Source: Acidaminococcus sp.
GTDB lineage: Bacteria > Bacillota > Negativicutes > Acidaminococcales > Acidaminococcaceae
NCBI RefSeq assembly: GCF_050873445.1
Contig: NZ_JBNMIU010000004.1
Coordinates: forward strand, 2,092 to 66,091
Length of the DNA stretch: 64,000 nt
Direction of reading: 5' to 3'
The first letter of the stretch is position 1. Each line of letters begins with the position of its first letter. Below the pieces are notes generated by a model. It saw nothing but the letters and a program-made list of their open reading frames with translations. It was not told the origin of the DNA and did no database searches. Below are positions 4,564 to 45,894 of the stretch, one piece after another. The translations under genes and the position numbers were made by a program.

Positions 4564-5127
4564 TCAGCAGACTGTGGTATAAATGACTTCACATCTTGGC
4601 GGCAGCAGCAGACCTGATGGTTTTGATCCGGTGATTACATACAGGGTATCGGCTTTCAGCGGGTGGCCTTCCAGGGCGGCGCCCAGCAGCTGTTCGTCTG
4701 TCAGGAAGGGGACGAACACGAAACGGTGGGCAGCCGGAGCCAGGAACTGGCTTTTTGCCAGCCGGGCATAGGTAGCGGTGAGGCCCTTCCGGGTCATCAC
4801 GTTGAAATCCACAGCTTTTCCTTCGGAATGGGTGTGCCAGGCACCGTCAAAATATGCTTCTTCCAGAGGTCTAAGGGGTATCTGGCGATTCCCATCTTCT
4901 GGAAAGGTCAGGGTAAAACCGCCCTCCAGGGGGCAGATGATCCGGTTGAAATCCGGCAGCAGGGTGAAATCTGAGGCATCCAGATCCACCGTGGCAGAAC
5001 TGATCCGGATCTGGAAATCCCGTTTGGCATAAGCAGCACTTCTGGGAAAAATATAGAATTCAGTCGTAGTTCCTCCAGACCAGCGGGTGGTCACGGCCTG
5101 GGAACGGGGAATGGCCTGGATGGTCAT
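4564..5127 (-). CDS. hutD: HutD/Ves family protein
   Basis: 187 aa with the HutD-like N-terminal signature (TTRWSGGTTTEFYIFP). Sits beside hut genes. RBS GGAGGT is 9 nt upstream. Confidence 0.7.
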   Translation of the reverse strand: MTIQAIPRSQAVTTRWSGGTTTEFYIFPRSAAYAKRDFQIRISSATVDLDASDFTLLPDFNRIICPLEGGFTLTFPEDGNRQIPLRPLEEAYFDGAWHTHSEGKAVDFNVMTRKGLTATYARLAKSQFLAPAAHRFVFVPFLTDEQLLGAALEGHPLKADTLYVITGSKPSGLLLPPRCEVIYTTVC

Positions 5128-5335
5128 AGGGCAGCACCTCCATCTGTGTTTGTACGCTTTCTTTCAGTATAGTAAAAAAACTTACGTCCATAAAGTGTCA
5201 AAAAATAAAAATATCGAAAAAAATTGATTTCAGACGTTTTTTAGGCGAAGAAATCATAATATAATAGCAGATAGGGCAAGGAATTGCCTTTCAGCTAAAC
5301 CAGTTAACGATAATAGGACTATGGAGGTGCCCATT

Positions 5336-6241
5336 ATGGCGAAAAAGTTGGTTGAATTTGTACCGAATTTCAGTGAAGGCCGGGATAAGGAAAAGGTTGA
5401 AAAAATCGTTGACGAAGCCCGCAAAATCAAAGGCCTGAAAATCCTGGATTACTCCAGCGATCCGGATCATAACCGTTCGGTGGTTACCATCATCGGTTCT
5501 CCTGAAGCGGTGACGGAAGCTGCCATCAACATGGCCAGGGTAGCCATCCAGCTGATCGACATGCGGACTCATCATGGTGCCCATCCCCGTTTCGGAGCTG
5601 TGGATGTGGTTCCCTTTACGCCTGTCATGGGCGTGACCATGGATGAATGTGTTGCCATTGCCAATGCTGTAGGCAAGGCTTATGGCGAAATGGGCATCCC
5701 CGTTTATCTGTATGAAGACGCCTGCACCAGGGAAGCCCGTCGGAACCTGGCTTCTGTCCGCAAGGGGCAGTATGAGGGCTTCTTTGAAAAAATCAAGGAT
5801 CCGGAATGGAAACCGGATTATGGCCCGGCTGTCATGAATGAAAAATCCGGTTGTTCTGCAGTGGGGGCCCGTGTACCATTGGTTGCCTTCAACGTGAACC
5901 TGGACTGCAGCGACAAGGCTGTGGCAGATGCCATCGCCCGCAAGGTCCGGAACATCGGCGGCGGTCTGCACTATGTAAAGGCCATGGGTGTAAAACTGGA
6001 AGAACGGAATCAGGTACAGGTTTCCATGAATCTGGTGAACTACGAAAAATCCGCTGTGTACCAGGCTTTCGAAATGATTAAGATGGAAGCCCGCCGGTAT
6101 GGCGTCAACGTAGTGGGCAGTGAAGTCATTGGGACCGTTCCCATGAAGGCACTGCTGATGGCTGCGGAATATTATCTGCAGATCGAAAACTTCAACCTGG
6201 ACGAAATCCTGGAAAAACGTCTGCTGGAACTGGAAGAATAA
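5336..6241 (+). CDS. ftcD: Glutamate formimidoyltransferase (FtcD N-terminal-type)
   Basis: MAKKLVEFVPNFSEGRD... is the canonical formiminotransferase N-terminus. GGAGG is 8 nt before the ATG at 5336. Confidence 0.85.
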   Translation: MAKKLVEFVPNFSEGRDKEKVEKIVDEARKIKGLKILDYSSDPDHNRSVVTIIGSPEAVTEAAINMARVAIQLIDMRTHHGAHPRFGAVDVVPFTPVMGVTMDECVAIANAVGKAYGEMGIPVYLYEDACTREARRNLASVRKGQYEGFFEKIKDPEWKPDYGPAVMNEKSGCSAVGARVPLVAFNVNLDCSDKAVADAIARKVRNIGGGLHYVKAMGVKLEERNQVQVSMNLVNYEKSAVYQAFEMIKMEARRYGVNVVGSEVIGTVPMKALLMAAEYYLQIENFNLDEILEKRLLELEE

Positions 6242-6271
6242 TTCCTTACCCAGAGAGAAGGAGGGACTTTG

Positions 6272-7948
6272 ATGCTGAGTGACATCGAGATTGCGCAAAA
6301 GAACGTCATGGAACCCATCAGCAAAATCGCTGACAATCTGGGAATCCTGCCGGAAGAACTGGAACAATATGGCCATTACAAGGCCAAACTTTCTCTGGAT
6401 GTACTGAAACGTCTGGAAAATAAACCCAACGGGAAATTGGTCCTGGTGACTGCCATCACCCCTACTCCTGCCGGGGAGGGAAAATCCACTACCAGCATTG
6501 GCCTGGCTGATGCTCTGCGGAAAATCGGCAAACACCCTGTGGTTGCCCTGCGTGAACCGTCCCTGGGTCCCGTATTCGGCATCAAGGGCGGTGCTGCCGG
6601 CGGCGGCTATGCCCAGGTGGTACCCATGGATGATATCAACCTGCATTTCACCGGTGATATGCATGCCATTACTGCCGTGAACAACCTGCTGGCCGCTATG
6701 ATCGACAACCACATCCATCATGGCAACCAGCTGCGGATCGATGCCCGTCAGATTACCTGGCGCCGGGTACTGGATATGAATGACCGCGCCCTGCGGAAAG
6801 TAGTGGTGGGGCTGGGCGGAAAAGTGAACGGCTTCCCCCGGGAAGATGCCTTTACCATTACCGTGGCCTCTGAAATCATGGCCATCCTGTGCCTGGCCAA
6901 AGATCTGGAAGATCTGAAAGCGCGGTTCGGCCGGATCGTCATCGGCAGCGATCTGGATGGAAATCCGGTGTACGTGCACCAGCTGGGCTGCGAGGGCGCC
7001 ATGGCCATGCTGATGAAGGATGCCATCAAACCGAATCTGGTCCAGACCCTGGAATACACTCCGGCCATCATCCACGGCGGTCCTTTTGCCAATATCGCCC
7101 ACGGCTGCAACTCCATTCTGGCCACCAAGATGGCTTTGAAACTGGGGGATGTGGCCATTACGGAAGCCGGTTTCGGTGCTGACCTTGGGGCCGAAAAATT
7201 CATCGACATCAAATGCCACTATGCCGGACTGTATCCGGATGCGGTGGTCGTGGTAGCTACCATCCGTGCCTTGAAGATGCACGGCGGCGTAGCCAAGGCC
7301 GATTTGGGCAAGGAAAATGTCCAGGCTCTCAGCGACGGATTCAGCAATCTGGCCAAACAGGTGGAAAATATGCGGAGCTTCGGGCTGCCGGTCCTGGTGG
7401 CCATCAATAAGTTTGCTACGGATACGCCGGCAGAAATCGATATGCTGCTGCAGAAATGCGCCAGCTACGGCGTGGAAGTGACCTTGAACGAAAGCTGGGA
7501 AAAGGGCGGTGAAGGCGGTCTGGATATGGCCCGCAAACTGGCCAAAATCCTGGATGAACAGGGACAGGCTCCCCAAAAGGTAGAACTGTATGATGTGAAT
7601 GATACCATCCCCAACAAGCTGAAAGCCATTGTGACCAAAATCTATGGCGGCGATGGTGTGACCTTCACTCCCAATGCCAGGAAGCAAATCAAACAGCTGG
7701 AAGAATGGGGCCTGGATAAGCTGCCGGTATGCGTAGCCAAGACCCAATATTCGCTCAGCGACAACCCGGCTCTCCTGGGTGCTCCCAGCGGGTTCAAGAT
7801 CAATGTACAGGATGTCCGGGTTTCCAATGGTGCCGGTTTCATCGTTTGTCAGACCAGTAACATCATGGTGATGCCCGGTCTGCCCAAACATCCGGCGGCT
7901 CTGAACATGGACATCGACAACAACGGCAAGATCACTGGTTTGTTCTGA
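6272..7948 (+). CDS. fhs: Formate--tetrahydrofolate ligase
   Basis: 558 aa with the [12 protein letters not shown]-loop motif and a typical Fhs C-terminus. GGAGGG is 7 nt before the ATG at 6272. Confidence 0.95.
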
Positions 7949-7967
7949 TACAGGAGGGATACTCCCC

Positions 7968-8588
7968 ATGGAATTGAAGAAACTCACGGTAGAAGGTTTT
8001 ATCAATGAAACAGCGTCTTCCTCTCCGGCACCTGGGGGCGGCAGCATCGCTGCCCTGAATGCGGCCTCTTCCGCAGCTCTGATCGCCATGGTGGCCCAGC
8101 TGACCCTGGGCAAGGAAAAATATGCTGATTCTCAGGAAGAAATGCAGGAAGTGGTCCGGAAGGCCGGTGCCATGAAAGATCAGTTCCTGGCTTTCATCGA
8201 TGAGGACAGCAATGCTTTCAACAAAATCATGGCTGCCTTTAAGCTGCCCAAGGATACGGACGAAGCCAAGAAGGCCCGCAGCGCAGCCATTCAGGATGCC
8301 ACTAAGGGTGCAGCTCTGGTTCCCTTCAAGGTAGGTCAGACAGCCAATGAGCTGTTTGACCTGGCCGAGGCAGTGATCCTGCGGGGCAACCCCAATGCGG
8401 TGACAGATGGGGCTGTAGCTGCCATGAACGCCCGGGCCGCTGTACGGGGAGCGTTCCTGAATGTGAAAATCAATCTGGGCAGCATCAAAGATGTCCTGTT
8501 TGTGGAAGAGCTGAAGAAACGGATGGCTGAAATCGAAGCCGATGTGGACTCCAGAGAACAGGCCCTGCTGGCCAAGGTGAAGCTGTAA
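7968..8588 (+). CDS. Cyclodeaminase/cyclohydrolase family protein (formimidoyl-THF cyclodeaminase-like, FTCD_C)
   Basis: 206 aa helical protein with SSPAPGGGSIAALNAA..., typical of the FTCD C-terminal / FchA family. Confidence 0.75.
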   Translation: MELKKLTVEGFINETASSSPAPGGGSIAALNAASSAALIAMVAQLTLGKEKYADSQEEMQEVVRKAGAMKDQFLAFIDEDSNAFNKIMAAFKLPKDTDEAKKARSAAIQDATKGAALVPFKVGQTANELFDLAEAVILRGNPNAVTDGAVAAMNARAAVRGAFLNVKINLGSIKDVLFVEELKKRMAEIEADVDSREQALLAKVKL

Positions 8589-11996: not shown

Positions 11997-12199
11997 TCCC
12001 GGCAGACAGTCGTTTTTTTGATTTTCTTTTGACGGAATTGGAAGAAAACGTCCAGAGAATGGACGGAAAATCACAGAATTTTTTCTGGAAGAAGAGGGAG
12101 AATTGGACGTTTTTCCGATGAAGGTTCCGTACAATAAAGACGTAATCAGAAAGGAAAGCACGTTTCCTCAAGAAACATACTGAAAAGGAGTGGTTCAAT

Positions 12200-14248
12200 A
12201 TGAAAAATGAAGACATCGGAAAAGCCATGACGATCAAATTGGAGTTCCCCAACGGACTGCCGAAACCAAAACCTTTCCAGGAAGGCATTCGCCGGGCTCC
12301 GGATCGTGGCTTCCGTCTGACGCCTGCCCAGACTGAAATCGCTCTGAAAAACGCACTGCGGTACATCCCTGAAAAATACCATGAAGAACTGATCCCGGAA
12401 TTCCTGGAAGAACTGACTACCCGGGGCCGGATCTATGGCTATCGATTCCGTCCGGAAGGCCGAATTTATGGGAAACCCATTGATGAATATAAAGGCAAAT
12501 GCACCGAAGGCAAGGCCTTCCAGGTGATGATCGACAACAACCTGGACTTTGAAGTGGCCCTGTATCCGTATGAACTGGTAACCTACGGTGAAACCGGCAG
12601 CGTGTGCCATGACTGGATGCAATACCTGCTGATTAAAAAATACCTGGAGAACATGACACCGGACCAGACTCTGGTCATGGAATCCGGCCATCCCCTGGGC
12701 CTGTTCCATTCCAAACCGGAAGCTCCCCGGGTCATCATCACCAACGGCCTGATGATTGGTGAATATGACAATCTGAAAGACTGGGAAATCGCTGAAGAAA
12801 TGGGCGTCGCCAACTACGGGCAGATGACCGCGGGCGGCTGGATGTACATCGGGCCGCAAGGAATCGTGCATGGCACATTCAATACTATTTTGAATGCCGG
12901 CCGTATGAAACTGGGTATCCCTGAAGATGGGGACTTGGGTGGCAAGCTGTTCATCACATCCGGGCTGGGCGGCATGAGCGGTGCTCAGGGCAAGGCGGCA
13001 GAAATTGCCAACTGCACAGCCATCGTTGCCGAAGTGGATGCCTCCCGGATCAAGACCCGTCTGGATCAGGGCTGGATCTCCGGCGTATCCGATTCTCTGC
13101 CGGAAGTATTCGACCTGGCTCATAAATCCATGGCTGAAAAGAAAGGCAAAGCCTACGCATACCATGGCAACATCGTGGATCTGCTGGAATACATCGTGGA
13201 TCATAACATCCATGTGGACCTGGTTTCCGACCAGACTTCCTGCCATAATGCCTACAACGGCGGTTACTGCCCGCAGGGTCTGACTTTTGAACAGCGGACC
13301 CAGATGCTGGCTGAGGATCCCAAATATTTCCGTGAACTGGTGGACAAAACCCTCCATGCCCACTTTGCAGCTCTGAAAAAGATTACTGCCCGCGGTGTAT
13401 ACTTCTTCGATTATGGCAACTCTTTCATGAAGGCTGTGTTCGATTCCGGCGTGAAGGAAATCTCCAAGAACGGTGTGGACGATAAAGACGGGTTCATCTG
13501 GCCGTCCTACGTAGAAGATATCATGGGGCCGCAGCTGTTCGACTATGGCTATGGACCGTTCCGCTGGGTCTGCCTGTCCGGCAAACCGGAAGACCTGCAT
13601 AAGACCGATATGGCAGCCATGAGCTGCATCGACGTGAACCGCCGGTATCAGGATCGGGATAACTACAACTGGATCCGTGACGCCGAAAAGAACAAACTGG
13701 TGGTAGGTACCCAGGCTCGTATCCTGTACCAGGATGAAGTAGGTCGTGTGAAGATTGCCTTGAAATTCAATGAACTGGTCCGCAAAGGCGAAATCGGGCC
13801 TGTGATGATGGGACGTGACCATCACGATGTATCCGGTACGGATTCTCCGTTCCGTGAAACCAGTAACATCAAAGACGGGTCTAATGTGATGGCCGATATG
13901 GCTGTACAGTGCTTCGCCGGGAACGCAGCCAGAGGCATGAGCCTGTGTGCCCTGCACAATGGCGGCGGCGTAGGGATCGGCAAGGCAATCAACGGCGGCT
14001 TTGGGCTGGTGCTGGATGGCAGCCATCGGGTAGACGAAATCATCCGCAGTTCCCTGAGCTGGGATGTAATCAGCGGTGTAGCCCGCCGGAGCTGGGCACG
14101 GAATGAACACGCTATGGAAACTGCGCTGGAATTCAACCAGACTCGTCTGGGCGTCGGACAGATTACTCTGCCTTACCTGACGGACGAAGCCAAGATCAAA
14201 GATGCAGTGGCCAGGGTATATCCGAACGCCCATGTAATCAAAGACTGA
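12200..14248 (+). CDS. hutU: Urocanate hydratase
   Basis: 682 aa with the urocanase NAD-binding motif TSGLGGMSGAQ. Long anaerobe-type form. Confidence 0.95.
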   Translation: MKNEDIGKAMTIKLEFPNGLPKPKPFQEGIRRAPDRGFRLTPAQTEIALKNALRYIPEKYHEELIPEFLEELTTRGRIYGYRFRPEGRIYGKPIDEYKGKCTEGKAFQVMIDNNLDFEVALYPYELVTYGETGSVCHDWMQYLLIKKYLENMTPDQTLVMESGHPLGLFHSKPEAPRVIITNGLMIGEYDNLKDWEIAEEMGVANYGQMTAGGWMYIGPQGIVHGTFNTILNAGRMKLGIPEDGDLGGKLFITSGLGGMSGAQGKAAEIANCTAIVAEVDASRIKTRLDQGWISGVSDSLPEVFDLAHKSMAEKKGKAYAYHGNIVDLLEYIVDHNIHVDLVSDQTSCHNAYNGGYCPQGLTFEQRTQMLAEDPKYFRELVDKTLHAHFAALKKITARGVYFFDYGNSFMKAVFDSGVKEISKNGVDDKDGFIWPSYVEDIMGPQLFDYGYGPFRWVCLSGKPEDLHKTDMAAMSCIDVNRRYQDRDNYNWIRDAEKNKLVVGTQARILYQDEVGRVKIALKFNELVRKGEIGPVMMGRDHHDVSGTDSPFRETSNIKDGSNVMADMAVQCFAGNAARGMSLCALHNGGGVGIGKAINGGFGLVLDGSHRVDEIIRSSLSWDVISGVARRSWARNEHAMETALEFNQTRLGVGQITLPYLTDEAKIKDAVARVYPNAHVIKD

Positions 14249-14270
14249 CTGAGGATTTGAACAACAGGAA

Positions 14271-14299
14271 AAGATTGCCGCCTTACGGGCGGCAATCTT
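14271..14299 (+). other. 12-bp hairpin abutting the hutI RBS (weak terminator or mRNA-processing/stability element)
   Basis: AAGATTGCCGCC pairs with GGCGGCAATCTT, loop TTACG. Only TTTGT follows, and AAGGAGG begins 4 nt later. Confidence 0.4.
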
Positions 14300-14315
14300 T
14301 GTAAGGAGGAAGACT

Positions 14316-15557
14316 ATGAACGATCGCCTGCTCATCAAAAATGCAGCCCAAATCGTCACCCCGCTGGGGAAGACTGCCCGCCGGGGCCGGGAAATGAAAC
14401 AGCTGAAAATCTATGAGAATCAGTCCATCTTGATTGAAAACGGGAAGATCCGCAGCATCGGAAATCAGCCAGACTGGGAAAAGCTGGTGCCGGCGGACAA
14501 ACAGATCGATGCCCGGGGCAAAGCTGTACTCCCCGGCTTTGTGGATTCCCATACCCATCTGGTGTTCGGTGGGTATCGGCCCGATGAATTCCTGTGGCGT
14601 ATGGAAGGCATGAGCTACATGGAAATCATGGAACGGGGAGGCGGTATCCTAAATACTATGAAAGCCACCCGTGAAGCCAGCGAAGAAGAGCTGGTAGACC
14701 ACAGCATGGACTTTTTGAAGAAGATGCTGGCCATGGGGGTCACTACCGTGGAAGCCAAGAGCGGTTATGGCCAGGATCATGATACGGAAATCAAACAGAT
14801 GAAAGTGGTGCAGGAGCTGAACAGCCGCCAGCCCATCGAACTGGTTTCCACGTTCCTTGGAGCTCATGCAGTCCCGCCGGAATTCAAGGACCGGGGCGAT
14901 GACTTCATTGAATTCCTGTTGAAAAACGTGATGCCGGAAGTGGCCAGGGACCATCTGGCAGAATTCTGCGATGTGTTCTGTGAAAAAGGGGTATTTTCCA
15001 TTGAGCAGAGCCGTCATCTTCTTCAGGAAGCACGGAAGATGGGTTTTAAACTAAAAATCCATGCAGATGAAATTGTCAGCCTGGGCGGCGCTGAACTGGC
15101 GGGTGAACTCCATGCCACCAGTGCCGATCATCTGCTCCATGCCAGCGATGCGGGAATCAAGGCCATGGCCGAAAACGGTGTGGTGTCCACTCTGCTGCCC
15201 ACTACGGCCTTCTGCCTGAAGGAACCCTTTGCCCGAGCAAGGAAAATGATCGATGCGGGCTGTGCCGTAGCCCTGGCTACGGACTTCAATCCCGGCAGCG
15301 GTTTTACCTTTTCGGTACCGCTGATGATCGGGCTGGCTGTGATCTACATGAAAATGACGGCGGAGGAAGCCATTACGGCTTTGACCTTGAATGGGGCAGC
15401 AGCTGTGGACCGGGCAGATCGGATCGGTTCCCTGGAACCGGGGAAACAGGCTGATCTGGTGATTCTCCAGTATCCGTCCTATAAATTCCTGCCCTATCAT
15501 ACGGGCATCAACATTGTGGAAATGGTGGTCAAGAACGGCAAAGTGGTGGTCCGCTGA
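14316..15557 (+). CDS. hutI: Imidazolonepropionase
   Basis: 413 aa amidohydrolase with the VDSHTHLVFGG metal-binding motif. Confidence 0.95.
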   Translation: MNDRLLIKNAAQIVTPLGKTARRGREMKQLKIYENQSILIENGKIRSIGNQPDWEKLVPADKQIDARGKAVLPGFVDSHTHLVFGGYRPDEFLWRMEGMSYMEIMERGGGILNTMKATREASEEELVDHSMDFLKKMLAMGVTTVEAKSGYGQDHDTEIKQMKVVQELNSRQPIELVSTFLGAHAVPPEFKDRGDDFIEFLLKNVMPEVARDHLAEFCDVFCEKGVFSIEQSRHLLQEARKMGFKLKIHADEIVSLGGAELAGELHATSADHLLHASDAGIKAMAENGVVSTLLPTTAFCLKEPFARARKMIDAGCAVALATDFNPGSGFTFSVPLMIGLAVIYMKMTAEEAITALTLNGAAAVDRADRIGSLEPGKQADLVILQYPSYKFLPYHTGINIVEMVVKNGKVVVR

Positions 15558-15574: not shown

Positions 15575-15612
15575 CGGCGGGCGTGCGGAAACGCACGTCC
15601 TGCTTTTTTTTG
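15575..15612 (+). terminator. Strong intrinsic terminator after hutI
   Basis: GGGCGTGCG GAAA CGCACGTCC followed by T8. Confidence 0.85.
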
Positions 15613-15713
15613 TAGTGATTTTATATTATAATAAAAAATAGACTATTGTAACGATTGAGGGGATTTCGCTGATGGACTGAATTCAGCCAATTTTTCTTAA
15701 TGAGGTGCAGGCC

Positions 15714-18700
15714 ATGTCGAGTCTGATTGAAGCAAGATTTCTGGGGGCTCCGGTCATCCGGAAAGATGGAAAAGAGATTTTCTTTCCCTATAACAAAGTC
15801 AATGCATTGGTTTACTATATCCTGGTCAAGGGGACGGTCCTGCGGGATGAGCTCAGTGGTATCTTGTGGGCGGACAAGTCCGATGCCATGGCCCGGAAGA
15901 ATCTGCGGAATGCCCTGTATGAAACAAAAAAAATCATGGGGGCGGATGTATTCATCTCACCCCGAAAGGCCATCATCAAGGTCAATCCGGATATTCAGGT
16001 GAAGGTGGATGTGAAGGACTTCGAGGCAGATCCGGGGCGAAATCTGGATCTGTACCAGGGGTCTTTTCTTCAGGGATTTTTCATCAAGGATGCCGAAGAA
16101 TATGAAAGCTGGTATCTGACAGAACGGGACCGGCTGGAGAGCCTGTACATGGAGGCTTTGCTCCAGAAACTGAAGGATGCAGTGGCGGTGCGGAACCTGC
16201 CGCAGGTGACCCGCTATGGGCGTATGCTGCTAAAACATGATCCCTACGATGAATCCATTTATACCCTGCTGCTTCAGACTTATTGCGAACAGGGGAACAT
16301 GAAGCAGGCCACCGAGCTGTATGAGGAAATGAAGGCCCTGTTCCGGGAGGAACTCCAGACCAGTGTCCCGCCGGAAATCGAAAAGCTCATGCGGGAGCAT
16401 CTTCAGCAGGAAAAAACAAAAGAAACGGCAGAACCTCGGAAAATCCAGGGGGATATTCCTGGACGGGAAACAGAACTGGACCAGCTCAATGGAGCGCTGG
16501 AACAGTTCCTTTCCGGAAAATCTTCCCGGACCCTGCTGCTGCAGGGGGATGCGGGCAGCGGCAAGACCAGCCTGAAGGATGTTCTGGTGCGGGAGCTGCC
16601 ACCGGATGTAGCGGTGATCCAAACCAATTGCTTCAAACCGGAACAGAACATCCCGCTGCGGCCCTGGACCGGTATCGTGGAGGGACTGGACAGCCTGGTC
16701 CGCCGGGAGAACATCAGGATTCCCAATATGGAACCGGGGAAACTCAGCGATCTGTTCCCGCAGATGGATATGAGCGGTGACCGGGAAGCCGGGCTGGGCG
16801 AAATCAAGGACCTGCTGAAATTCGATGCAGTGTTCCATACTCTGTATACGGTACTGGAGAATGCGGCTAAGGCAAGGAGAATCCTGCTGATTTTTGAGGA
16901 TATCCACTGGATGGATTCCCTGAGCCTGTCCCTGCTCAGCAGCCTGATCCTCCATAAACGGTCCGATCGGTTCCTGTTCCTTTTGACGGCCCAGCCCTCC
17001 CGGGAAAAGAATTACCAGCAGTTCGAGACGTCAGTGACCATGTACCACAAGCTGCAGGTGCTGGAACTGAAGCCTCTGGACAAAGAGGGTATCCGGCAGT
17101 ATGCCAGCCGGACCGGGCTGACTGTGCCCGTGGATGGCAATCTGGTGCAGCGGCTCTGGGAGGAATCTGAAGGAAATCTGTTCCTGCTGCGGGAATGCCT
17201 CATGGCTCTGAAGACCACCGGCAGCCTGGATAATCTGACAGAGAACATGCGGAATATTTTCAGGGCCAGCTGCTTTGCTTTGACGGATAACCAGCAGAAA
17301 ATCCTGGACTTTATTTCCCTGTTCTATGACGGAGCACCGCTGGCCATGATCTCCGAATATATGCACATGAACAACCTGCAGACCCTGGAGAATATGGAGA
17401 GCCTGCGCAAGGCCAACTTTATCCGGCCAGTGCCTCAGCAGCCGGAGGTAATCTATAAACTGGTCCACCAGAAAATGAAAGATTATCTCCAGCAGCAGAT
17501 TTCCGTGGACAAGCAGCGGATCCTTCACAGTTACATTGCCAGTCTGTGGGAAAAAAGGCTGACCCATTCGCCTCAGGATATCCGGCTGTACCACCATCTG
17601 GAGTACCATTACCAGGAGGCCGGTGAGCTGGTGAACATGGGGCGGTATAAACTGAAAATCCTCATGTACTACCTGAACTTCAGCAATGAACTGTTCCCAG
17701 TGCTCAGCAGCACGGAACTGGTTCCGGATGACACCAAGAGCCGTTTCATCGAGACCAATCTGGACCAATTCCTGGCGGAAGTGGACGAGATGATGCATAC
17801 CATCAAACGGACCTGCGGAGAGACTCCGGAAGTGAAGGAACTGGAGATGACCTATCTTCATCTCATGGGCCGTCACTACATCCGTGTAGGGGAATATGAA
17901 AAGGGTGTCCGGAACATCCTGAGCCTGATCGAACAGGCAGCAGAGATCCACAACCGGGATTATATGCTCATGGGCTATAAGCAGATGATTTACTACGATA
18001 TCCAGATCGGCAACACGGAAGAAATGAAAAACTATCTGGAAGTGGCCCTGAACCTGGCTGACGAATGCAATTACCACAAGGAAATGGGCATCCTGCTGCG
18101 GCTGAAGGGTCTGAACATGATCATGCAGGGAAACTTCCCGGAAGCGGAGCGACTGCTGAGAGAGTCCATCTCCACCTTTACAGTGACTCAGAATGTGCAG
18201 CACCGGTATGCACTGAACATCGCCGGAGCTTATAATTATCTGGGGGAAATCCGACGGGGTGAGGGAAAATTCCAGGAAGCCCTGGACGAGTACAAAAAGG
18301 CTCTTGAATATGCCAAAGGGCAGGAGGCCTACAGCAGCTGGGTGGTATTTTCCTGCAATGCCGGGGTGGCCTGCTACAATATGGGCCGTTACCCGGAGGC
18401 CCGGAAGTATTTCCTCCAGGCCTATGAATTGTTCCCCCGCTATGTGTTTTACTGGCGGCATCCCATCGTGGAATCCTACCTGGCGCTGCTCTCCATGCGG
18501 AAACAGCAGGAAAAGGAAGCAATCAGCTATCTGGATGATGCTCTCCATAAATTGGGCAATATGAACAATCCCCGGGAAGCTGGTTATGTATATATGGCCA
18601 TTGCGCTGCTGAAACAGAACTATCCGGACAGCCGGATCACCAGCCATTATGAGGGATCGGTGGCCTCTTATGCCACACGGGCCCTCCAGGTGCTGGATCC

Positions 18701-18746
18701 TTATCGGGACTCCTGGGAACGGCAGCAATTGGAAGCATTGTTTTGA
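15714..18746 (+). CDS. Large SARP/BTAD-family transcriptional regulator with P-loop NTPase and TPR-like C-terminus (STAND/AfsR-like architecture)
   Basis: N-terminal winged-helix + BTAD-like region (FLGAPVIRKDGKEI...NALVYYILVKG...ARKNLRNALYE; LLKHDPYDESIYTLLLQTYCEQGNMKQATELYEEMK). Walker A is GDAGSGKTS and Walker B-like is LLIFEDIHWMD. Helical repeats fill the last ~400 aa. ATG at 15714 has GAGG 8 nt upstream. Confidence 0.8.
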   Translation: MSSLIEARFLGAPVIRKDGKEIFFPYNKVNALVYYILVKGTVLRDELSGILWADKSDAMARKNLRNALYETKKIMGADVFISPRKAIIKVNPDIQVKVDVKDFEADPGRNLDLYQGSFLQGFFIKDAEEYESWYLTERDRLESLYMEALLQKLKDAVAVRNLPQVTRYGRMLLKHDPYDESIYTLLLQTYCEQGNMKQATELYEEMKALFREELQTSVPPEIEKLMREHLQQEKTKETAEPRKIQGDIPGRETELDQLNGALEQFLSGKSSRTLLLQGDAGSGKTSLKDVLVRELPPDVAVIQTNCFKPEQNIPLRPWTGIVEGLDSLVRRENIRIPNMEPGKLSDLFPQMDMSGDREAGLGEIKDLLKFDAVFHTLYTVLENAAKARRILLIFEDIHWMDSLSLSLLSSLILHKRSDRFLFLLTAQPSREKNYQQFETSVTMYHKLQVLELKPLDKEGIRQYASRTGLTVPVDGNLVQRLWEESEGNLFLLRECLMALKTTGSLDNLTENMRNIFRASCFALTDNQQKILDFISLFYDGAPLAMISEYMHMNNLQTLENMESLRKANFIRPVPQQPEVIYKLVHQKMKDYLQQQISVDKQRILHSYIASLWEKRLTHSPQDIRLYHHLEYHYQEAGELVNMGRYKLKILMYYLNFSNELFPVLSSTELVPDDTKSRFIETNLDQFLAEVDEMMHTIKRTCGETPEVKELEMTYLHLMGRHYIRVGEYEKGVRNILSLIEQAAEIHNRDYMLMGYKQMIYYDIQIGNTEEMKNYLEVALNLADECNYHKEMGILLRLKGLNMIMQGNFPEAERLLRESISTFTVTQNVQHRYALNIAGAYNYLGEIRRGEGKFQEALDEYKKALEYAKGQEAYSSWVVFSCNAGVACYNMGRYPEARKYFLQAYELFPRYVFYWRHPIVESYLALLSMRKQQEKEAISYLDDALHKLGNMNNPREAGYVYMAIALLKQNYPDSRITSHYEGSVASYATRALQVLDPYRDSWERQQLEALF

Positions 18747-18764
18747 ATGAGGGAGGAATGGAAA

Positions 18765-19127
18765 ATGGTTACTCTGAAAAAAGTGGCGGAAACACTGGGA
18801 GCTCAGGTGGTTTTGGGGCAGGAATCCCTGAACCGCACGGTGAGTTCCGCCTGTGGCAGTGACATGATGAGCGATGTGCTGGCCTATGCGAAGAATGATG
18901 CAGTGCTGCTCACAGGTCTGCTCAATGTACAGGTGGTGCGCACGGCAGATGTGAGTGATGCTGCAGCTCTGATTTTCGTCCGGGATAAGCATCCGGAAAA
19001 CGATGTGCTGCTGGCGGCCCGGGATAAGAACATACCCGTGCTGTATACCCGCTGTACCATGTTCGAAGCATGCGGCCGGCTGTATGGACTGGGTCTGCGG
19101 GGCTGTACTGCTAAGGACAGGAAATAA
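18765..19127 (+). CDS. DRTGG domain protein (small, stand-alone)
   Basis: 120 aa: ...CGSDMMSDVLAYAKNDAVLLTGLLNVQVVRTA...IPVLYT...FEACGRLY, typical of small DRTGG proteins. GGGAGG is 8 nt before the ATG. The gap to the regulator stop is 18 nt. Confidence 0.75.
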   Translation: MVTLKKVAETLGAQVVLGQESLNRTVSSACGSDMMSDVLAYAKNDAVLLTGLLNVQVVRTADVSDAAALIFVRDKHPENDVLLAARDKNIPVLYTRCTMFEACGRLYGLGLRGCTAKDRK

Positions 19128-19130
19128 GGG

Positions 19131-19547
19131 ATGGAAGAAACCTATACCGTCATCCCGGATGACTTCGAACGGGCCGGTGCGGCGTCCACATCTCTGAAAG
19201 GCACCCTGAAACAGCTGGGGCTGTCTCCGGAGCTGATTCGCCGGATTGCCATCGGTACCTATGAAGGTGAGATGAACTGCCTGATTCATGGCGGCGGCGG
19301 TACCATCCGGGCCGAACTGAGCCCTCAAGCCATCCAGGTGATTATCGAGGATAACGGTCCCGGCATCCCGGATGTGCAGAAGGCCATGCAGGAAGGATGG
19401 TCCACCGCTTCGGCTGAAATCCGGGCTATGGGTTTTGGCGCCGGCATGGGACTGCCCAATATGAAAAAGGTGTCGGACGAAATGCAGATCGCTACCCAAG
19501 TGGGGAAAGGGACGAAGGTCACTCTGACGTTCAAGCTGCCTCATTGA
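19131..19547 (+). CDS. HATPase_c-type ATP-binding protein (anti-sigma-factor/Ser-Thr kinase-like)
   Basis: 138 aa with an N-box-like EGEMNCLIHG, G1 box EDNGPGIPD and G2 box GFGAGMGLPN. Confidence 0.75.
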   Translation: MEETYTVIPDDFERAGAASTSLKGTLKQLGLSPELIRRIAIGTYEGEMNCLIHGGGGTIRAELSPQAIQVIIEDNGPGIPDVQKAMQEGWSTASAEIRAMGFGAGMGLPNMKKVSDEMQIATQVGKGTKVTLTFKLPH

Positions 19548-19576
19548 GAAAGACTGCGGGAGGGAGGTGAAGCGGG

Positions 19577-20872
19577 ATGACAGAACCTTATCTGAATTCG
19601 GTGCGGGTAGACAGGGAACGCTGTACCGGCTGCCTGATCTGTGTGAAAGAATGTCTGGTACAGGCCATCCGGGTCAGAAACGGCAAAGCGGAAATCCTGT
19701 CGGACAAATGCATCGACTGCGGAGAATGCATCCGCTGCTGCCCGGTGCGGGCCATGGAAGGCTGGGCCGATTCCCTGGATGAACTGAAGAAGTATAAGGT
19801 GAACATCGCTCTGGCCACCCCCTCTTTCTATGCCCAGTTCGATGGCAACATTGCGGCTTCAGTAATCTGGGAGGGCCTGCGGGAGCTGGGCTTTGACACT
19901 GTCTTTGATGTAGCCCTGGCCGGGGACTACGTGAGCCGGGAAATGGAAGGGTATATTGGCCGTTACAGGGGACCGTTCCCGCTGATTTCCTCAGCCTGTC
20001 CGGCAGTGCTGCGGCTGATCCAGACCAGGTATCCGGAACTGGTGAAGCAGGTGCTGCCCATCCTGGCTCCGGCAGAGGCGGCGGCCATCTATACCCGGAG
20101 AGAGACCACCCGGCGGCTGAAAGTGGCCCCGGAGCAGGTGGGAATCTGGTTCATCTCCCCCTGCCCCTCCAAGGGAACCAACATCCATCAGTCCGTGGAT
20201 GTGGCTCATACGGCTGTCACTGGCTCCTTTACCATCGCCTCCATCTATGGGCCGCTTACCAAGGCCATCAAGCATGTGCAGGAAACCCGGTATGAGGTGC
20301 CGGAGGCCATCCTGGGTTCCTCATACAGTCTCAGCTGGGGCAGCTGGCAGGGTGAACTGGAATCCACCGGAGTGACCGATGCCGTATGTGCCCAGGGGCC
20401 TGAGGAAGTGGATGAACTGCTGGAACAGATCAGCATGGCAAAGCTGAACGATGTGCGGTATGCCTGCTGCTACAGCTGTGCTGGCGGCTGTGTGGGCGGA
20501 CCTTGCGTGGCCGTCAACAAGTTTGTGGCCGCAAAGAATCTGCGGGTGCGGGTGGGGCGGCGCCGGAGCCGGGAAAGTCCCGACCGGCAGGAGACGATGC
20601 AGAACTGCCGGATCCTGGAGGATTTTCCTGCCTCCTGGCGTTACATCAAGCCTCTGGAACCCAGGCCCCATCCGCCTTTGGCGGAAGATTTCGGGGAGGC
20701 ACTGGAAAAGATGCAGCAGCTGAAAGCCCTGGAGCAGGAATTTCCCCAGCTGGACTGCGGAGCCTGTGGTGCTCCGACCTGTAAGGCTTTTGCGGAAGAT
20801 GTGGTTCGGGGACTGGGGCAGAAAGACGATTGTATCTTTCTGCGGAAAAAACAGCAAAAAAAAGAAAAATAG
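19577..20872 (+). CDS. 2x[4Fe-4S] ferredoxin / [FeFe]-hydrogenase large-subunit-like domain / C-terminal RnfB-type FeS domain protein
   Basis: CTGCLICVKEC and CIDCGECIRCCP ferredoxin motifs. H-cluster-like motifs are SSACP (A140-C141), SPCPSK (C196, K199) and CAGGCVGGP (C301, C305). C-terminal motif is LDCGACGAPTCKAFAEDV...DC. Confidence 0.8.
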   Translation: MTEPYLNSVRVDRERCTGCLICVKECLVQAIRVRNGKAEILSDKCIDCGECIRCCPVRAMEGWADSLDELKKYKVNIALATPSFYAQFDGNIAASVIWEGLRELGFDTVFDVALAGDYVSREMEGYIGRYRGPFPLISSACPAVLRLIQTRYPELVKQVLPILAPAEAAAIYTRRETTRRLKVAPEQVGIWFISPCPSKGTNIHQSVDVAHTAVTGSFTIASIYGPLTKAIKHVQETRYEVPEAILGSSYSLSWGSWQGELESTGVTDAVCAQGPEEVDELLEQISMAKLNDVRYACCYSCAGGCVGGPCVAVNKFVAAKNLRVRVGRRRSRESPDRQETMQNCRILEDFPASWRYIKPLEPRPHPPLAEDFGEALEKMQQLKALEQEFPQLDCGACGAPTCKAFAEDVVRGLGQKDDCIFLRKKQQKKEK

Positions 20873-20946: not shown

Positions 20947-20975
20947 TTGCAAGTTTCATGAAATATTGCTATTAT
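20947..20975 (+). promoter_or_regulatory. Sigma-70-like promoter (TTGCAA-17-TATTAT)
   Basis: TTGCAA at 20947-20952, 17 nt spacer, TATTAT at 20970-20975. Confidence 0.45.
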
Positions 20976-21052: not shown

Positions 21053-22576
21053 ATGATCGATATTACAGATCGAGTCCATTGTGCGGCTGCGCTGAGCAAA
21101 ATCATGCCTGCAGAAAAAGCAGCCGAATTCATTCAGGATGGCATGAACCTGGGTATGAGCGGTTTCACCCCGTCCGGCTATCCCAAAGCTGTGCCCCTGG
21201 CACTGGCTGCCAGAGGGAAGGAACATCCTTTCAAAGTGAATGTATGGACAGTGCTTGCCGGTCCTGAAGTCGATACCGAAATGGTGAAAGCCGGTATCGT
21301 AGGGAACCGGATGCCTTATCAGACGGATAAGAACTGCCGGAATGCCATCAACAACGGCCAGATCAAATATCTGGATACCCATATCAGTACGTTCAATCAA
21401 ATGGCCCGGTTCGGTTTCCTGCCGGATCACCGGGACGTGGATGTAGCTATCATCGAAGCCTGCGCTATCAAGGATCTGGGCAAGGGCAAAATCGGCATTA
21501 TCCCCACCACCAGCCTGGGCGGCAGCTGCAGCTATGTGCAGAGCGCCAAGAAGGTTATCGTGGAAGTGAATACTACTCAGCCTGTGGGCCTGGAAGGGAT
21601 GCACGACTGCTACGTACCGCTGGATCCTCCTTACCGGAAGATTATCCCCATTGAAAAACCGGAAGACCGGATTGGTACCACCTATATCCCCTGCGACCTG
21701 GATAAACTGGTGGCCATCGTTCCCTGCGACATCCCTGATACCCCCAGCAAACTGGCTCCCATCAGCGACATCGCCCGGGCCATGGGTGCCAATCTGGTGG
21801 ATTTCTTGAAGAATGAAGTGAAACAGGGCCGTCTGCCCAAGAATCTGCTTCCCCTGCAATCCGGTGTAGGCTCTGTAGCCAATGCTGTGATCAACGGTCT
21901 GGTCCATTCCGATTTCGAAGATTTGACGGTATATACCGAAGTCATTCAGGATGGCATGTTCGATCTGATCGATGCCGGCAAACTACGTGTGGCTTCCGGG
22001 GCTTCCTTGACCATGTCCGCCGAAGTGCAGAAACGGTTCTACAGCAATCTGGAAAAATATAAATCCCATCTGATTCTGCGGCCTCAGGAAATCTCCAACA
22101 ACCCTGAAGTGGTACGGCGCTTGGGTATTATCGGCATGAACACCGCTATCGAAGTGGACCTGTACGGCAACGTGAACTCTTCCCATATCTGCGGGACCAA
22201 TCTGATGAACGGCATCGGCGGCAGCGGTGATTTCGCCCGGAACGGGTATCTGTCCATCTTCTTTGCCGAATCGGAACGGAAAGACGGCAAGATCAGTTCT
22301 GTGGTTCCCTTCTGCTCTCACATCGACAACAACGAACACGATGTGGATGTTATCGTTTCTGAACGTGGCGTAGCCGATCTGCGTGGACTGTCTCCGAAAG
22401 AAAGAGCTCCGATCATCATTGACAAGATTGCCAGCCCGCGGTATCAGCCTCTGCTGAAAGATTATTTCGAACGGGCCTGCGTTGCCTGCCATAACAGCCA
22501 GACACCCCATATCCTCAAAGAAGCCTTCTCTTTCCATGAAAGAATGTTGGAAACCGGCACCATGGAGAAAAAATAA
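21053..22576 (+). CDS. Acetyl-CoA hydrolase/transferase family protein, succinate/propionate-type CoA-transferase (ScpC/Cat1/ASCT-like)
   Basis: 507 aa. N-terminus ...AAEFIQDGMNLGMSGFTPSGYPKAVP... and C-terminal ...GMNTAIEVDLYGNVNS...NGIGGSGDFARN are typical of the family. AGGAGG is 8 nt before the ATG at 21053. Confidence 0.8.
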   Translation: MIDITDRVHCAAALSKIMPAEKAAEFIQDGMNLGMSGFTPSGYPKAVPLALAARGKEHPFKVNVWTVLAGPEVDTEMVKAGIVGNRMPYQTDKNCRNAINNGQIKYLDTHISTFNQMARFGFLPDHRDVDVAIIEACAIKDLGKGKIGIIPTTSLGGSCSYVQSAKKVIVEVNTTQPVGLEGMHDCYVPLDPPYRKIIPIEKPEDRIGTTYIPCDLDKLVAIVPCDIPDTPSKLAPISDIARAMGANLVDFLKNEVKQGRLPKNLLPLQSGVGSVANAVINGLVHSDFEDLTVYTEVIQDGMFDLIDAGKLRVASGASLTMSAEVQKRFYSNLEKYKSHLILRPQEISNNPEVVRRLGIIGMNTAIEVDLYGNVNSSHICGTNLMNGIGGSGDFARNGYLSIFFAESERKDGKISSVVPFCSHIDNNEHDVDVIVSERGVADLRGLSPKERAPIIIDKIASPRYQPLLKDYFERACVACHNSQTPHILKEAFSFHERMLETGTMEKK

Positions 22577-39918: not shown

Positions 39919-40054
39919 CATTTCGTACACTGAATACAGTCGGTCCAACCGGAGTGCGAATGTAAAAAATACTCATAAAGGGGGATGGATTATTTCTTAG
40001 AGGAGGATTCCGGTTGTTTCAGAAACTGGTTTGGATCATAAGGAGGTTTTTGCT

Positions 40055-41017
40055 TTGAGTAAAGTAATGACGTTAAAAGACGCAATCGCAAAGTACGTAC
40101 ACAGCGGTGATCACATTGCTCTGGGTGGCTTTACGACTGACCGTAAACCGTATGCAGCTGTGTATGAAATCCTGAGACAGGGTATCACTGACCTGACCGG
40201 CCTGAGCGGCGCTGCCGGCGGCGACTGGGATATGCTGATCGGCAATGGCCGTGTGAAAGCCTACATCAACTGCTACACTGCCAACTCTGGTGTAACCAAC
40301 GTTTCCAGACGGTTCAGAAAATGGTTCGAAGCCGGCAAACTGACCATGGAAGACTACTCCCAGGACGTAATCTACATGATGTGGCATGCCGCTGCTCTGG
40401 GTCTGCCGTTCCTGCCTGTAACCCTGATGCAGGGCTCTGGCCTGACCGATGAATGGGGCATCAGCAAAGAAGTTCGCAAAACTCTGGATAAGGTGCCCGA
40501 TGACAAATTCAAATATATCGACAACCCCTTCAAGCCGGGTGAAAAAGTCGTGGCTGTACCGGTTCCGCAAATCGATGTGGCCATCATCCATGCCCAGCAG
40601 GCTTCTCCGGATGGCACCGTTCGCATCTGGGGCGGCAAATTCCAGGATGTGGATATTGCTGAAGCTGCTAAATATACCATTGTTACCTGCGAAGAAATCG
40701 TCAGCAATGAAGAAATCCGCAGAGATCCCACCAAGAATGATATCCCCGGCATGTGCGTAGATGCTGTGGTACTGGCTCCTTATGGTGCTCATCCTTCTCA
40801 GTGCTATGGCCTGTATGACTATGATAATCCGTTCCTGAAAGTCTATGACGTAGTCAGCAAGACCCAGGAAGACTTCGATGCCTTCTGCAAAGAATGGGTG
40901 TTTGACCTGAAAGATCATGACGAATACCTGAACAAACTGGGTGCTACCCGTCTGATCAACCTGAAGGTTGTTCCTGGTCTGGGCTATCATATCGACATGA
41001 CGAAGGAGGACAAATAA
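40055..41017 (+). CDS. gctA: Glutaconate CoA-transferase subunit A
   Basis: TTG start with AAGGAGG 8 nt upstream gives (M)SKVMTLKDAIAKYVHSGDHIALGGFTTDRKPY..., 320 aa. This matches the A. fermentans GctA N-terminus as I remember it. Confidence 0.95.
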   Translation: MSKVMTLKDAIAKYVHSGDHIALGGFTTDRKPYAAVYEILRQGITDLTGLSGAAGGDWDMLIGNGRVKAYINCYTANSGVTNVSRRFRKWFEAGKLTMEDYSQDVIYMMWHAAALGLPFLPVTLMQGSGLTDEWGISKEVRKTLDKVPDDKFKYIDNPFKPGEKVVAVPVPQIDVAIIHAQQASPDGTVRIWGGKFQDVDIAEAAKYTIVTCEEIVSNEEIRRDPTKNDIPGMCVDAVVLAPYGAHPSQCYGLYDYDNPFLKVYDVVSKTQEDFDAFCKEWVFDLKDHDEYLNKLGATRLINLKVVPGLGYHIDMTKEDK

Positions 41018-41019
41018 CA

Positions 41020-41823
41020 ATGGCTGATTACACGAATTATACCAATAAAGAAATGCAGGCTGTGACCATTGCCAAGCAGATCAAAAATGGTCAGGTCGTA
41101 ACCGTTGGTACCGGCCTGCCTCTGATCGGCGCCAGCGTGGCCAAGAGAGTATATGCTCCTGACTGCCATATCATCGTGGAAAGTGGTCTGATGGACTGCT
41201 CTCCTGTTGAAGTTCCCCGTTCCGTAGGTGACCTGCGGTTCATGGCTCATTGCGGCTGCATCTGGCCGAACGTCCGGTTCGTTGGTTTTGAAATCAACGA
41301 ATACCTGCACAAGGCAGACCGTCTGATCGCTTTCATCGGCGGTGCTCAGATCGACCCGTACGGCAACGTGAACTCCACCTCCATCGGTGACTACCATCAT
41401 CCGAAAACCCGTTTCACCGGGTCCGGCGGCGCCAACGGCATTGCTACGTACTCCAACACCATTATCATGATGCAGCATGAAAAACGCAGATTCATGAAAC
41501 AGATCGACTATGTGACCAGCCCGGGCTGGATCGATGGCCCTGGCGGACGTGAAAGACTGGGTCTGCCCGGTGATGTAGGTCCGCAACTGGTCGTAACCGA
41601 TAAAGGGATCCTGAAATTCGATCCGAAGACCAAACGGATGTACCTGGCTGCCTACTATCCTTCTTCTTCTCCGGAAGATGTACTGGAAAACACGGGCTTC
41701 GATCTGGATGTTTCCCAGGCTGTTGAACTGGAACCGCCTGATCCTGCCGTTATCAAACTGATCCGTGAAGAAATCGACCCGGGCCAGGCTTTCATTAAAG
41801 TCCCTGTTCCGGAAGCAAAATAA
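41020..41823 (+). CDS. gctB: Glutaconate CoA-transferase subunit B
   Basis: 267 aa (MADYTNYTNKEMQAVTIAKQIKNGQVV...), immediately after gctA. Confidence 0.95.
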   Translation: MADYTNYTNKEMQAVTIAKQIKNGQVVTVGTGLPLIGASVAKRVYAPDCHIIVESGLMDCSPVEVPRSVGDLRFMAHCGCIWPNVRFVGFEINEYLHKADRLIAFIGGAQIDPYGNVNSTSIGDYHHPKTRFTGSGGANGIATYSNTIIMMQHEKRRFMKQIDYVTSPGWIDGPGGRERLGLPGDVGPQLVVTDKGILKFDPKTKRMYLAAYYPSSSPEDVLENTGFDLDVSQAVELEPPDPAVIKLIREEIDPGQAFIKVPVPEAK

Positions 41824-41846
41824 ACCATTCAGGAGGAAAAATTTAA

Positions 41847-43610: not shown

Positions 43611-43632
43611 TTCTTACGGAGGCTAACCATTC

Positions 43633-44424: not shown

Positions 44425-44458
44425 GCGTGATTTCATTTCGAGAGAAGGAAGGATCATT

Positions 44459-45892: not shown

Positions 45893-45894
45893 CA

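Follow-up and report, generated by a model that had tools for sequence, protein, structure and literature searches.

A probable junction between a histidine-utilization regulator gene and an orphaned HydS sensor module in Acidaminococcus

We analysed a 64,000-nucleotide (nt) stretch of the genome of an Acidaminococcus sp. (contig NZ_JBNMIU010000004.1, positions 2,092 to 66,091 of the forward strand), here called the window, and focused on four genes, g1 to g4, that follow each other on its plus strand and span positions 15714-20872. The first, g1, encodes a large regulator that joins a SARP domain to a STAND ATPase. The other three, which we call the trio, encode a stand-alone DRTGG protein (g2), a small SpoIIAB-like GHKL ATPase/kinase (g3) and a putative sensory [FeFe] hydrogenase of the HydS type (g4). 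An earlier reading of the DNA letters alone (the original prediction) had proposed that all four genes work as one redox- or H2-sensing partner-switch feeding a transcriptional activator. Our results favour a different explanation: we consider it probable that the locus is the junction of two conserved units, an AfsR-like activator of the histidine-utilization (hut) genes and an orphaned minimal HydS sensor, which are juxtaposed and probably co-transcribed. At the level of gene structure and domains the original prediction was largely right. Its four co-directional, closely spaced open reading frames (ORFs) were found where it had placed them, with gaps of 18, 3 and 29 nt (g1/g2, g2/g3 and g3/g4, respectively), all four have many homologues, the best database matches point to Acidaminococcus as the host, and Pfam upholds every domain that it had named with the exception of Trans_reg_C.

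The product of g1 has the architecture of AfsR

Gene g1 (15714-18746, plus strand, with an alternative GTG start at 15705) encodes a protein of 1010 amino acids (aa). By its profile matches and its structural model it is an AfsR-like large SARP, made of a SARP domain (aa 1-240), a STAND ATPase (NOD/AAA_16, aa 249-421) and TPR repeats (aa about 680-950). The Pfam matches are to BTAD (E = 2.7e-12), AAA_16 (1.3e-20), NACHT (1.9e-06), TPR_12 (2.9e-16) and TPR_MalT (4.4e-12). The Walker A motif GDAGSGKTS (aa 278-286, nt 16545-16571) and the Walker B motif LLIFEDIHWMD (aa 391-401, nt 16884-16916) lie where they had been described and, together with AAA_16, the TPR repeats and the AfsR-like SARP fold, bear out the description of g1 as a switch of STAND/AfsR-like architecture.

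The SARP-type winged helix that had been predicted ahead of BTAD required a closer look. BTAD is recognized by Pfam. The winged helix is not: with the threshold at E = 10, Trans_reg_C still failed to match the N-terminal region of g1, and searching this region against the PDB by phmmer gave nothing useful. However, the AlphaFold model of residues 1-245 has a predicted local distance difference test score (pLDDT) of 92.5, and in Foldseek it matches, over its full length, the SARP domains of AfsR (8k60 and 8hvr; E 1e-10 to 2e-9) and of EmbR. Hence, the winged helix of g1 is supported by fold and not by profile.

Comparison with AfsR of Streptomyces coelicolor reveals likenesses as well as differences. 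The SARP-NOD-TPR architecture is found in g1 too, with both Walker motifs. Superposition of the N-terminal model on the SARP domain of AfsR extends across about 250 columns (E 1e-10). The candidate g1 box presented below has afs-box geometry: two 11-base-pair (bp) repeats overlap the -35, and 8 bp separate the 3′ one from the -10. In contrast, the SARP domain of g1 is only about 18-20% identical to that of AfsR, in keeping with the lack of a Trans_reg_C match, the host is a Negativicute instead of an actinomycete, the genomic context is primary amino-acid catabolism (hut) and not antibiotic biosynthesis, and no AfsK-type kinase is evident. MalT of E. coli offers a second parallel. It is also a STAND ATPase with a TPR-like sensor (the part of g1 that matches Pfam TPR_MalT), and g1 likewise lies within or beside a catabolic operon that is presumably activated upon a small-molecule inducer; the two differ in that the helix-turn-helix of MalT is C-terminal and of the LuxR type, whereas g1 bears an N-terminal SARP domain. 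SARPs are found mainly in actinomycetes (PMC10936776), and their usual context is the control of secondary metabolism. With its Acidaminococcus host and its hut context, g1 lies outside this usual setting.

Relatives of g1 and a SARP-like box accompany hut genes

In the window, g1 is the last gene of a hut cluster that runs formiminotransferase (5321), formate-tetrahydrofolate ligase, cyclodeaminase, NhaC-family transporter, hutH, hutU, hutI and g1. We looked at g1 relatives in seven contexts outside Acidaminococcus. Those inside hut clusters cover an identity range of 29-61%: about 30% in Streptococcus koreensis and Clostridium sp. Mt-5, and 51-61% in the orthologues of three further contigs (L092-L094), where the order is hutU-hutI-g1-NhaC-hutH. 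At none of the g1-relative loci outside Acidaminococcus was a trio found. One of the contexts, in Clostridiaceae bacterium 35-E11 (L005, 9001-15127), holds a tandem pair of g1-like paralogues of SARP-STAND-TPR architecture and, after them, a gene for a Cache/HAMP protein, with M20 peptidase, amidohydrolase and NhaC-family genes as neighbours. This setting suggests that the g1 family also controls other clusters for amino-acid or peptide catabolism.

Alignment of the hutH-hutU spacer from five Acidaminococcus lineages yielded one invariant block, TTRGACGTTTTTYNGATGA, present in all five. Within it the distance from GACG to GATG is 11 bp, and its end is always 8 nt from the -10 hexamer. The corresponding hutU promoter box of the window, TTGGACGTTTTTCCGATGA (12103-12121, plus strand), is a candidate g1 binding site whose 3′ end lies 8 nt from the -10 TACAAT (12130-12135). 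When the 64 kb window was scanned with up to 3 mismatches, a single match was recovered besides the seed, with 0.11 expected by chance. This second box, TCAGACGTTTTTTAGGCGA (5230-5248, plus strand), is located ahead of the formiminotransferase gene, 8 nt 5′ of a TAATAT -10-like hexamer. According to the published rule, SARP boxes consist of 11-bp direct repeats that overlap the -35 and leave 8 bp between the 3′ repeat and the -10 (PMC10936776), and the geometry at both the hutU and the formiminotransferase promoters matches it. We infer that g1 may bind these two candidate sites.

The exact core of the box occurs once in each g1-orthologue locus that has a hutU promoter (L008 2506-2520, L088 2341-2355, L090 2334-2348, L095 4451-4465, L092 6231-6245 and L093 6135-6149), the trio-less L092 and L093 included, and in 0 of 88 other loci. 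No hut box was found near the trio, CoA-transferase, gct or decarboxylase genes of the window, nor in the trio's own promoter region in the one Acidaminococcus lineage (L001) where a transporter gene parts the trio from g1. The distribution of the box thus follows g1 and hut, and not the trio. A further copy, with 2 mismatches, was noted between the g1 orthologue and NhaC in L092 (13080-13098, minus strand), on the strand opposite NhaC. The hexamer TGGACG, which we had also considered as a hut motif, was discarded as a post hoc and weak choice (41 found versus 29 expected), and the longer footprinted box was used instead.

These observations nominate g1 as a hut regulator. In the literature that we searched, we found nothing relevant on a STAND or SARP regulator of hut, nor any hut regulator described for this setting. 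Negativicutes, Clostridia and streptococci have an AfsR-type large SARP in their hut clusters, together with a conserved afs-box-like site, which suggests that the SARP family also controls primary amino-acid catabolism in Bacillota. As far as we could find, the association of a large SARP with hut in Bacillota, together with an afs-box-like site, is new.

g4 carries the hallmarks of a group D sensory hydrogenase

Gene g4 (19577-20872, plus strand) matches several Fer4 types in Pfam (Fer4_6, Fer4_10 and Fer4_9), Fe_hyd_lg_C (8.4e-23) and FeS (PF04060; 8e-12). Two CxxCxxCxxxC motifs for [4Fe-4S] clusters stand at its N-terminus (aa 16-26 and 45-55), and the three signatures of the H-domain follow: L1 SSACPA (19988-20005), L2 SPCPSK (20156-20173) and L3 CAGGCVGG (20477-20500). 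We aligned g4 to Clostridium pasteurianum hydrogenase I (CpI). C141, C196, C301 and C305 of g4 align with the CpI H-cluster ligands C300, C355, C499 and C503, and are invariant in 12 homologues. At the position of the proton-relay cysteine, CpI 299, g4 has an alanine, and at CpI 353, a methionine, it has a serine; the same holds for most of the 82 loci of the survey described below. The C-terminal Cx2Cx4Cx16C motif is CGACGAPTCKAFAEDVVRGLGQKDDC (aa 394-419, nt 20756-20833), and no PAS domain was matched in g4 by Pfam.

The four H-cluster cysteines, absence of Cys299, replacement of Met353 by Ser or Thr, a C-terminal Cx2Cx4Cx16C and the lack of a PAS domain are the hallmarks of the group D (M2e) putative sensory [FeFe] hydrogenases (PMC8163306). 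Every hallmark tested is present in g4, and by these sequence features it is a member of that group. The trio had originally been described as having no assigned function; this has to be revised for g4, since group D includes the biochemically characterized TamHydS of Thermoanaerobacter mathranii (PMC8163306, PMC13104023), whose gene lies upstream of a trimeric bifurcating hydrogenase (PMC8163306). The signalling route of group D is stated in the literature to be unknown (PMC8163306, PMC13104023). g4 has the domain order of TamHydS (2x[4Fe-4S], H-domain, C-terminal Cx2Cx4Cx16C, no PAS), the same active-site substitutions (position 299 not Cys, M353 to Ser) and, directly upstream, a gene for a GHKL (histidine-kinase-like) ATPase, here g3. 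It differs from TamHydS in that its locus lacks hydABC, PHP, the second DRTGG and the second HATPase, in its shortened C-terminal tail, and in that the upstream neighbour of its trio is a SARP/STAND gene. The tail that follows Cx2Cx4Cx16C (20834-20872 in the window) has 9-15 residues in Acidaminococcus versus 36-45 in other Acidaminococcaceae. Over loci L001-L087 the HydS tail tends to be shorter where hydABC is not adjacent (median 25 versus 33, Mann-Whitney p = 0.03).

g2 and g3 probably act together

Gene g2 (18765-19127, plus strand, 120 aa) starts with an ATG at 18765 that is preceded by a GGGAGG ribosome-binding site, and its homologues have the same N-terminus. It matches Pfam DRTGG (4.2e-07) and, at profile level, AF_1212 (PDB 2ioj). 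Gene g3 (19131-19547, plus strand) matches HATPase_c (1.1e-12) and HATPase_c_2 (2.5e-11) in Pfam, and spoIIAB in NCBIfam with E = 8.5e-16 and 58 bits, below the cut-off of 135. Its nearest PDB chains are those of SpoIIAB, 1til (E 1.2e-05) and 1th8, and it carries the N box EGEMNCLIHG (19263-19292), the G1 box EDNGPGIP (19347-19370) and the G2 box GFGAGMGL (19431-19454).

In Thermoanaerobacterium (L032, 9160-9969) DRTGG and HATPase_c_2 are fused in one protein of 269 aa encoded upstream of HydS, as checked with Pfam; ORFs of matching size are found in five related loci of Thermoanaerobacterium and Tepidanaerobacter-like genomes. Following the Rosetta-stone argument, this fusion indicates that g2 and g3 act together. 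They recall the SpoIIAB/SpoIIAA and RsbW/RsbV partner switches. g3 has the size and the ATP-binding boxes of SpoIIAB, which is its nearest solved relative, and it is paired with a small single-domain protein. That partner, however, is a DRTGG protein instead of a STAS protein, and there is no PP2C phosphatase: canonical hyd clusters have a PHP protein instead, which is missing from the window. Pfam detected no STAS, PP2C or sigma factor domain in the four genes or their flanks. Our literature search on DRTGG plus hydrogenase returned nothing relevant.

The trio is the head of a larger hydrogenase cluster

Using aligned g4 homologues as the query, we searched a single genome of each species, kept the 80 best loci and labelled their neighbours by BLASTP; the survey of motifs and neighbours comprises 82 loci, and about 78 HydS loci lie outside Acidaminococcus. 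In Negativicutes, Clostridia and Thermoanaerobacterales the canonical order is DRTGG-HATPase-HydS-DRTGG2-PHP-HydC-HATPase2-Fd-HydB-HydA, the accessory proteins being confirmed by Pfam. Of 82 loci, 71 have DRTGG and 79 have HATPase upstream of HydS; downstream, DRTGG2 follows in 67 of 75 and PHP in 61 of 73. HydA or HydB lies within 8 kb in 37 of the 55 loci that have at least 7 kb of downstream sequence, so in Bacillota the trio does normally stand beside hydABC operons, as had been stated. With g2 and g3 directly 5′ of g4, the window holds the canonical head of this cluster. To the extent of our literature search, the definition of this ten-gene HydS context, with a DRTGG-HATPase fusion that ties the two proteins together, is new.

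A g1-type gene was searched for beside the trio in the about 78 loci outside Acidaminococcus, with a hidden Markov model of the g1 SARP domain and by neighbour labelling, and none was found. In Christensenella hongkongensis (L085, 5118-6356) a 412-aa protein with Trans_reg_C, BTAD and a weak GGDEF match is encoded 2.8 kb upstream of the trio. We rejected it as a trio-linked SARP gene, because a pair of opposite-strand genes (543 aa and 96 aa) lies in between; it is the sole case in about 78 loci.

The rest of the cluster is missing from the window. No HydA, HydB, HydC, PHP or DRTGG2 was detected by tblastn in the 64 kb besides weak matches to g4, which confirms the earlier remark that no hydrogenase structural gene is near, and none of the large window ORFs that were sampled belonged to a maturase-like family. 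The gene that now follows the trio, for a CoA-transferase of the AcetylCoA_hydro family (21053-22576, plus strand; identified by tblastn and by the gene order in six loci), is informative in this regard. A CoA-transferase gene lies 3′ of hydA in Phascolarctobacterium, Sporomusa and Anaerospora; the window gene is its orthologue, with 71% identity, and the CoA-transferases 3′ of hydA in Negativicutes are 65-88% identical to that of the window. The orthologue 3′ of g4 therefore marks the far edge of a deleted DRTGG2-PHP-hydCBA block, and these gene orders are most simply explained by a deletion in the Acidaminococcus lineage that removed the genes between HydS and the CoA-transferase, DRTGG2 through hydA, a stretch of about 6.5 kb. 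An independent and smaller deletion, from PHP to hydA, is seen in six Phascolarctobacterium loci: there, DRTGG-HATPase-HydS-DRTGG2 is followed by the CoA-transferase gene, PHP and hydCBA are gone, and sister species have the full cluster. Clostridia also have orphan trios or quintets, placed among unrelated genes.

H2 is formed by A. fermentans (PMC5861303), and a table based on HydDB assigns this species an [FeFe] hydrogenase of group A2 (PMC12578642 supplement). A distant target of the trio and the maturases are therefore plausibly encoded elsewhere in the genome.

The junction within Acidaminococcus

We compared seven Acidaminococcus lineages, in which the identity of g4 to that of the window ranges from 64% to 87%. 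The pairing of g1 with g2 is present in all seven, in agreement with the predicted link between the trio and a SARP/STAND gene in related genomes, and six of them leave 17-35 nt, free of any terminator, between g1 and g2. In the window itself, our scan detected no terminator between g1 and g2. In the seventh lineage, L001 (NSJ-142-like), g1 is followed by a strong terminator, an NhaC-family gene, a second strong terminator and about 270 nt of AT-rich DNA, and only then by the trio. We rejected the NhaC insertion as the ancestral state, as two further lineages are also tightly spaced; by parsimony, the tight g1-trio arrangement would be ancestral in the genus and the L001 insertion derived. Since the gap is short and free of terminators in six of seven lineages, co-transcription of g1 and the trio is probably ancestral and prevalent in the genus. 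The L001 insertion indicates, in turn, that it is dispensable. Furthermore, both flanks of the junction are equally syntenic in the genus, and hence adjacency by itself says little.

All four genes are under purifying selection. Measured against four other Acidaminococcus lineages, the ratio of non-synonymous to synonymous substitution rates (dN/dS) is 0.06-0.27 for all of them, values that are approximate because dS is saturated. The trio is therefore not a decaying remnant. In two lineages (L088 and L090) the CoA-transferase gene is absent and the gene for the decarboxylase alpha subunit lies directly 3′ of the g4 homologue; in L088, a DDE transposase gene is found further downstream.

Proposed mechanism and alternative explanations

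In the explanation that we favour, g1 would be an AfsR/MalT-style STAND activator belonging to the hut cluster. By analogy with AfsR and MalT, its TPR/NOD part would keep the N-terminal SARP domain inactive until it is freed by ATP and an effector, for which histidine, urocanate or an intermediate further down the pathway are the likeliest candidates. Two SARP domains would then bind the 22-bp box, formed by two 11-bp repeats that overlap the -35 and of which the 3′ one is 8 bp from the -10, and the box-bound protein would recruit RNA polymerase to the hutU and formiminotransferase promoters. Genes g2-g4 would constitute the minimal core of a group D HydS module, in which HydS would bind H2 at its intact H-cluster site and, by a change of conformation, signal to the DRTGG protein and the SpoIIAB-like GHKL protein paired with it. 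Ancestrally, this core would have headed the ten-gene cluster that ends in the bifurcating hydCBA. The deletion from DRTGG2 to hydA would have put it beside the CoA-transferase gene formerly 3′ of hydA, and the selected trio presumably acts in trans on H2 or redox metabolism encoded elsewhere.

Some points weigh against this explanation. The evidence for a hydrogenase and its maturases comes from A. fermentans only, and not from the genome of the window. The case for g1 as hut regulator is circumstantial, its basis being gene neighbourhood and a cis-element. Six of the seven lineages have g1 and g2 tightly spaced, and genes that share an operon frequently function together. Finally, the trio brings no DNA-binding output of its own and its partners DRTGG2, PHP and HATPase2 have been lost in the genus, which makes a new partner conceivable.

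On this last ground, the orphaned trio could have been rewired in Acidaminococcus to feed an H2 or redox signal into the adjacent g1, tuning the genes of amino-acid fermentation. The SpoIIAB-like protein, for example, would bind or phosphorylate g1, much as AfsK phosphorylates AfsR. Several facts agree with such a coupling: the short, terminator-free gap is kept in six lineages at divergences down to 64% (g4) and 68% (g1), purifying selection acts on g1 as well as on the trio, Ser/Thr phosphorylation is a known modulator of AfsR (PMC10936776), and glutamate fermentation, into which histidine feeds, yields H2 (PMC5861303). We nevertheless consider the coupling unlikely, and the evidence that speaks against it is also what led us to disfavour the original proposal of a single four-gene system. 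The pairing is confined to one genus, whose other flanks are just as syntenic. The relatives of g1 sit in hut clusters without any trio, and HydS trios elsewhere never have a g1-type neighbour. The box with SARP geometry stands at the hut promoters, and not at those of the trio, gct or the CoA-transferase/decarboxylase genes. Lastly, one lineage insulates the trio from g1 with two strong terminators, a transporter gene and a promoter region of its own. A more specific version, in which the trio was captured into the g1 operon, the SpoIIAB-like protein modulates g1 by binding or serine phosphorylation, and H2 pressure gates the histidine/glutamate fermentation genes, we likewise hold to be doubtful; if true, it would give a group D sensory [FeFe] hydrogenase a defined output route for the first time. 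For genome scanning in general, tight spacing inside one genus is weak evidence of a functional module.

A different target, neither g1 nor a distant hydrogenase, would be the downstream cluster of the CoA-transferase and the Na+-pumping decarboxylase. No terminator was detected in our scan of the window between g4 and the CoA-transferase gene, a CoA-transferase lies 3′ of the hyd cluster throughout Negativicutes, and decarboxylase genes are found 3′ of the trio in every Acidaminococcus lineage. Yet L088 and L090 keep the trio without the CoA-transferase, the CoA-transferase gene has a separate promoter-like site at its 5′ side, in canonical clusters the trio and the CoA-transferase are about 6.5 kb apart, with hyd genes filling the interval, and the orphan trios of Clostridia have unrelated downstream genes. 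We consequently regard this target as improbable. The trio could also be a non-functional relic, left over from the deleted hydrogenase operon and maintained as a passenger of read-through from g1, as the loss of the neighbouring hydABC, PHP and DRTGG2 and the short HydS tail (9-15 residues, versus 36-45 in other Acidaminococcaceae) might suggest. This we reject as highly improbable: its reading frames are intact in seven lineages, the cofactor ligands and ATP-binding boxes are all invariant, and the low dN/dS, with saturated dS, speaks against it. Acidaminococcus represents a natural minimal case, in which DRTGG, HATPase and HydS alone survive, under selection and with no neighbouring hydrogenase. 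This makes it a convenient place to look for the output of group D sensors.

Other features of the window

The boundaries that had been predicted for the four-gene group, a terminator upstream and a promoter downstream, were both recovered by our scans. The intrinsic terminator (15579-15610, plus strand) lies 3′ of hutI, between the hut structural genes and g1, and consists of a hairpin (15579-15600) with a 9-bp stem that contains 7 G-C pairs, followed by a T run. The promoter-like site 5′ of the CoA-transferase gene (20947-20975, plus strand) reads TTGCAA-17-TATTAT and has an extended -10 TG.

Upstream of the hut cluster, an ORF of 187 aa (4564-5127, minus strand), divergent from the formiminotransferase gene, may encode HutD, which its letters resemble. 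About 19 kb downstream, an operon of the hydroxyglutarate pathway (40031-47034) comprises CoA_trans, an ORF at 41020-41823, Carboxyl_trans, an ORF at 43633-44424 and two HGD-D dehydratase subunits; no hut box was found near it. Very long antisense ORFs, of up to 940 aa, run opposite most of the real genes of the window, g1-g3 included (17031-19544, 12146-14359 and 5291-8113, all on the minus strand, among others), and we take them to be artefacts of composition and not genes.

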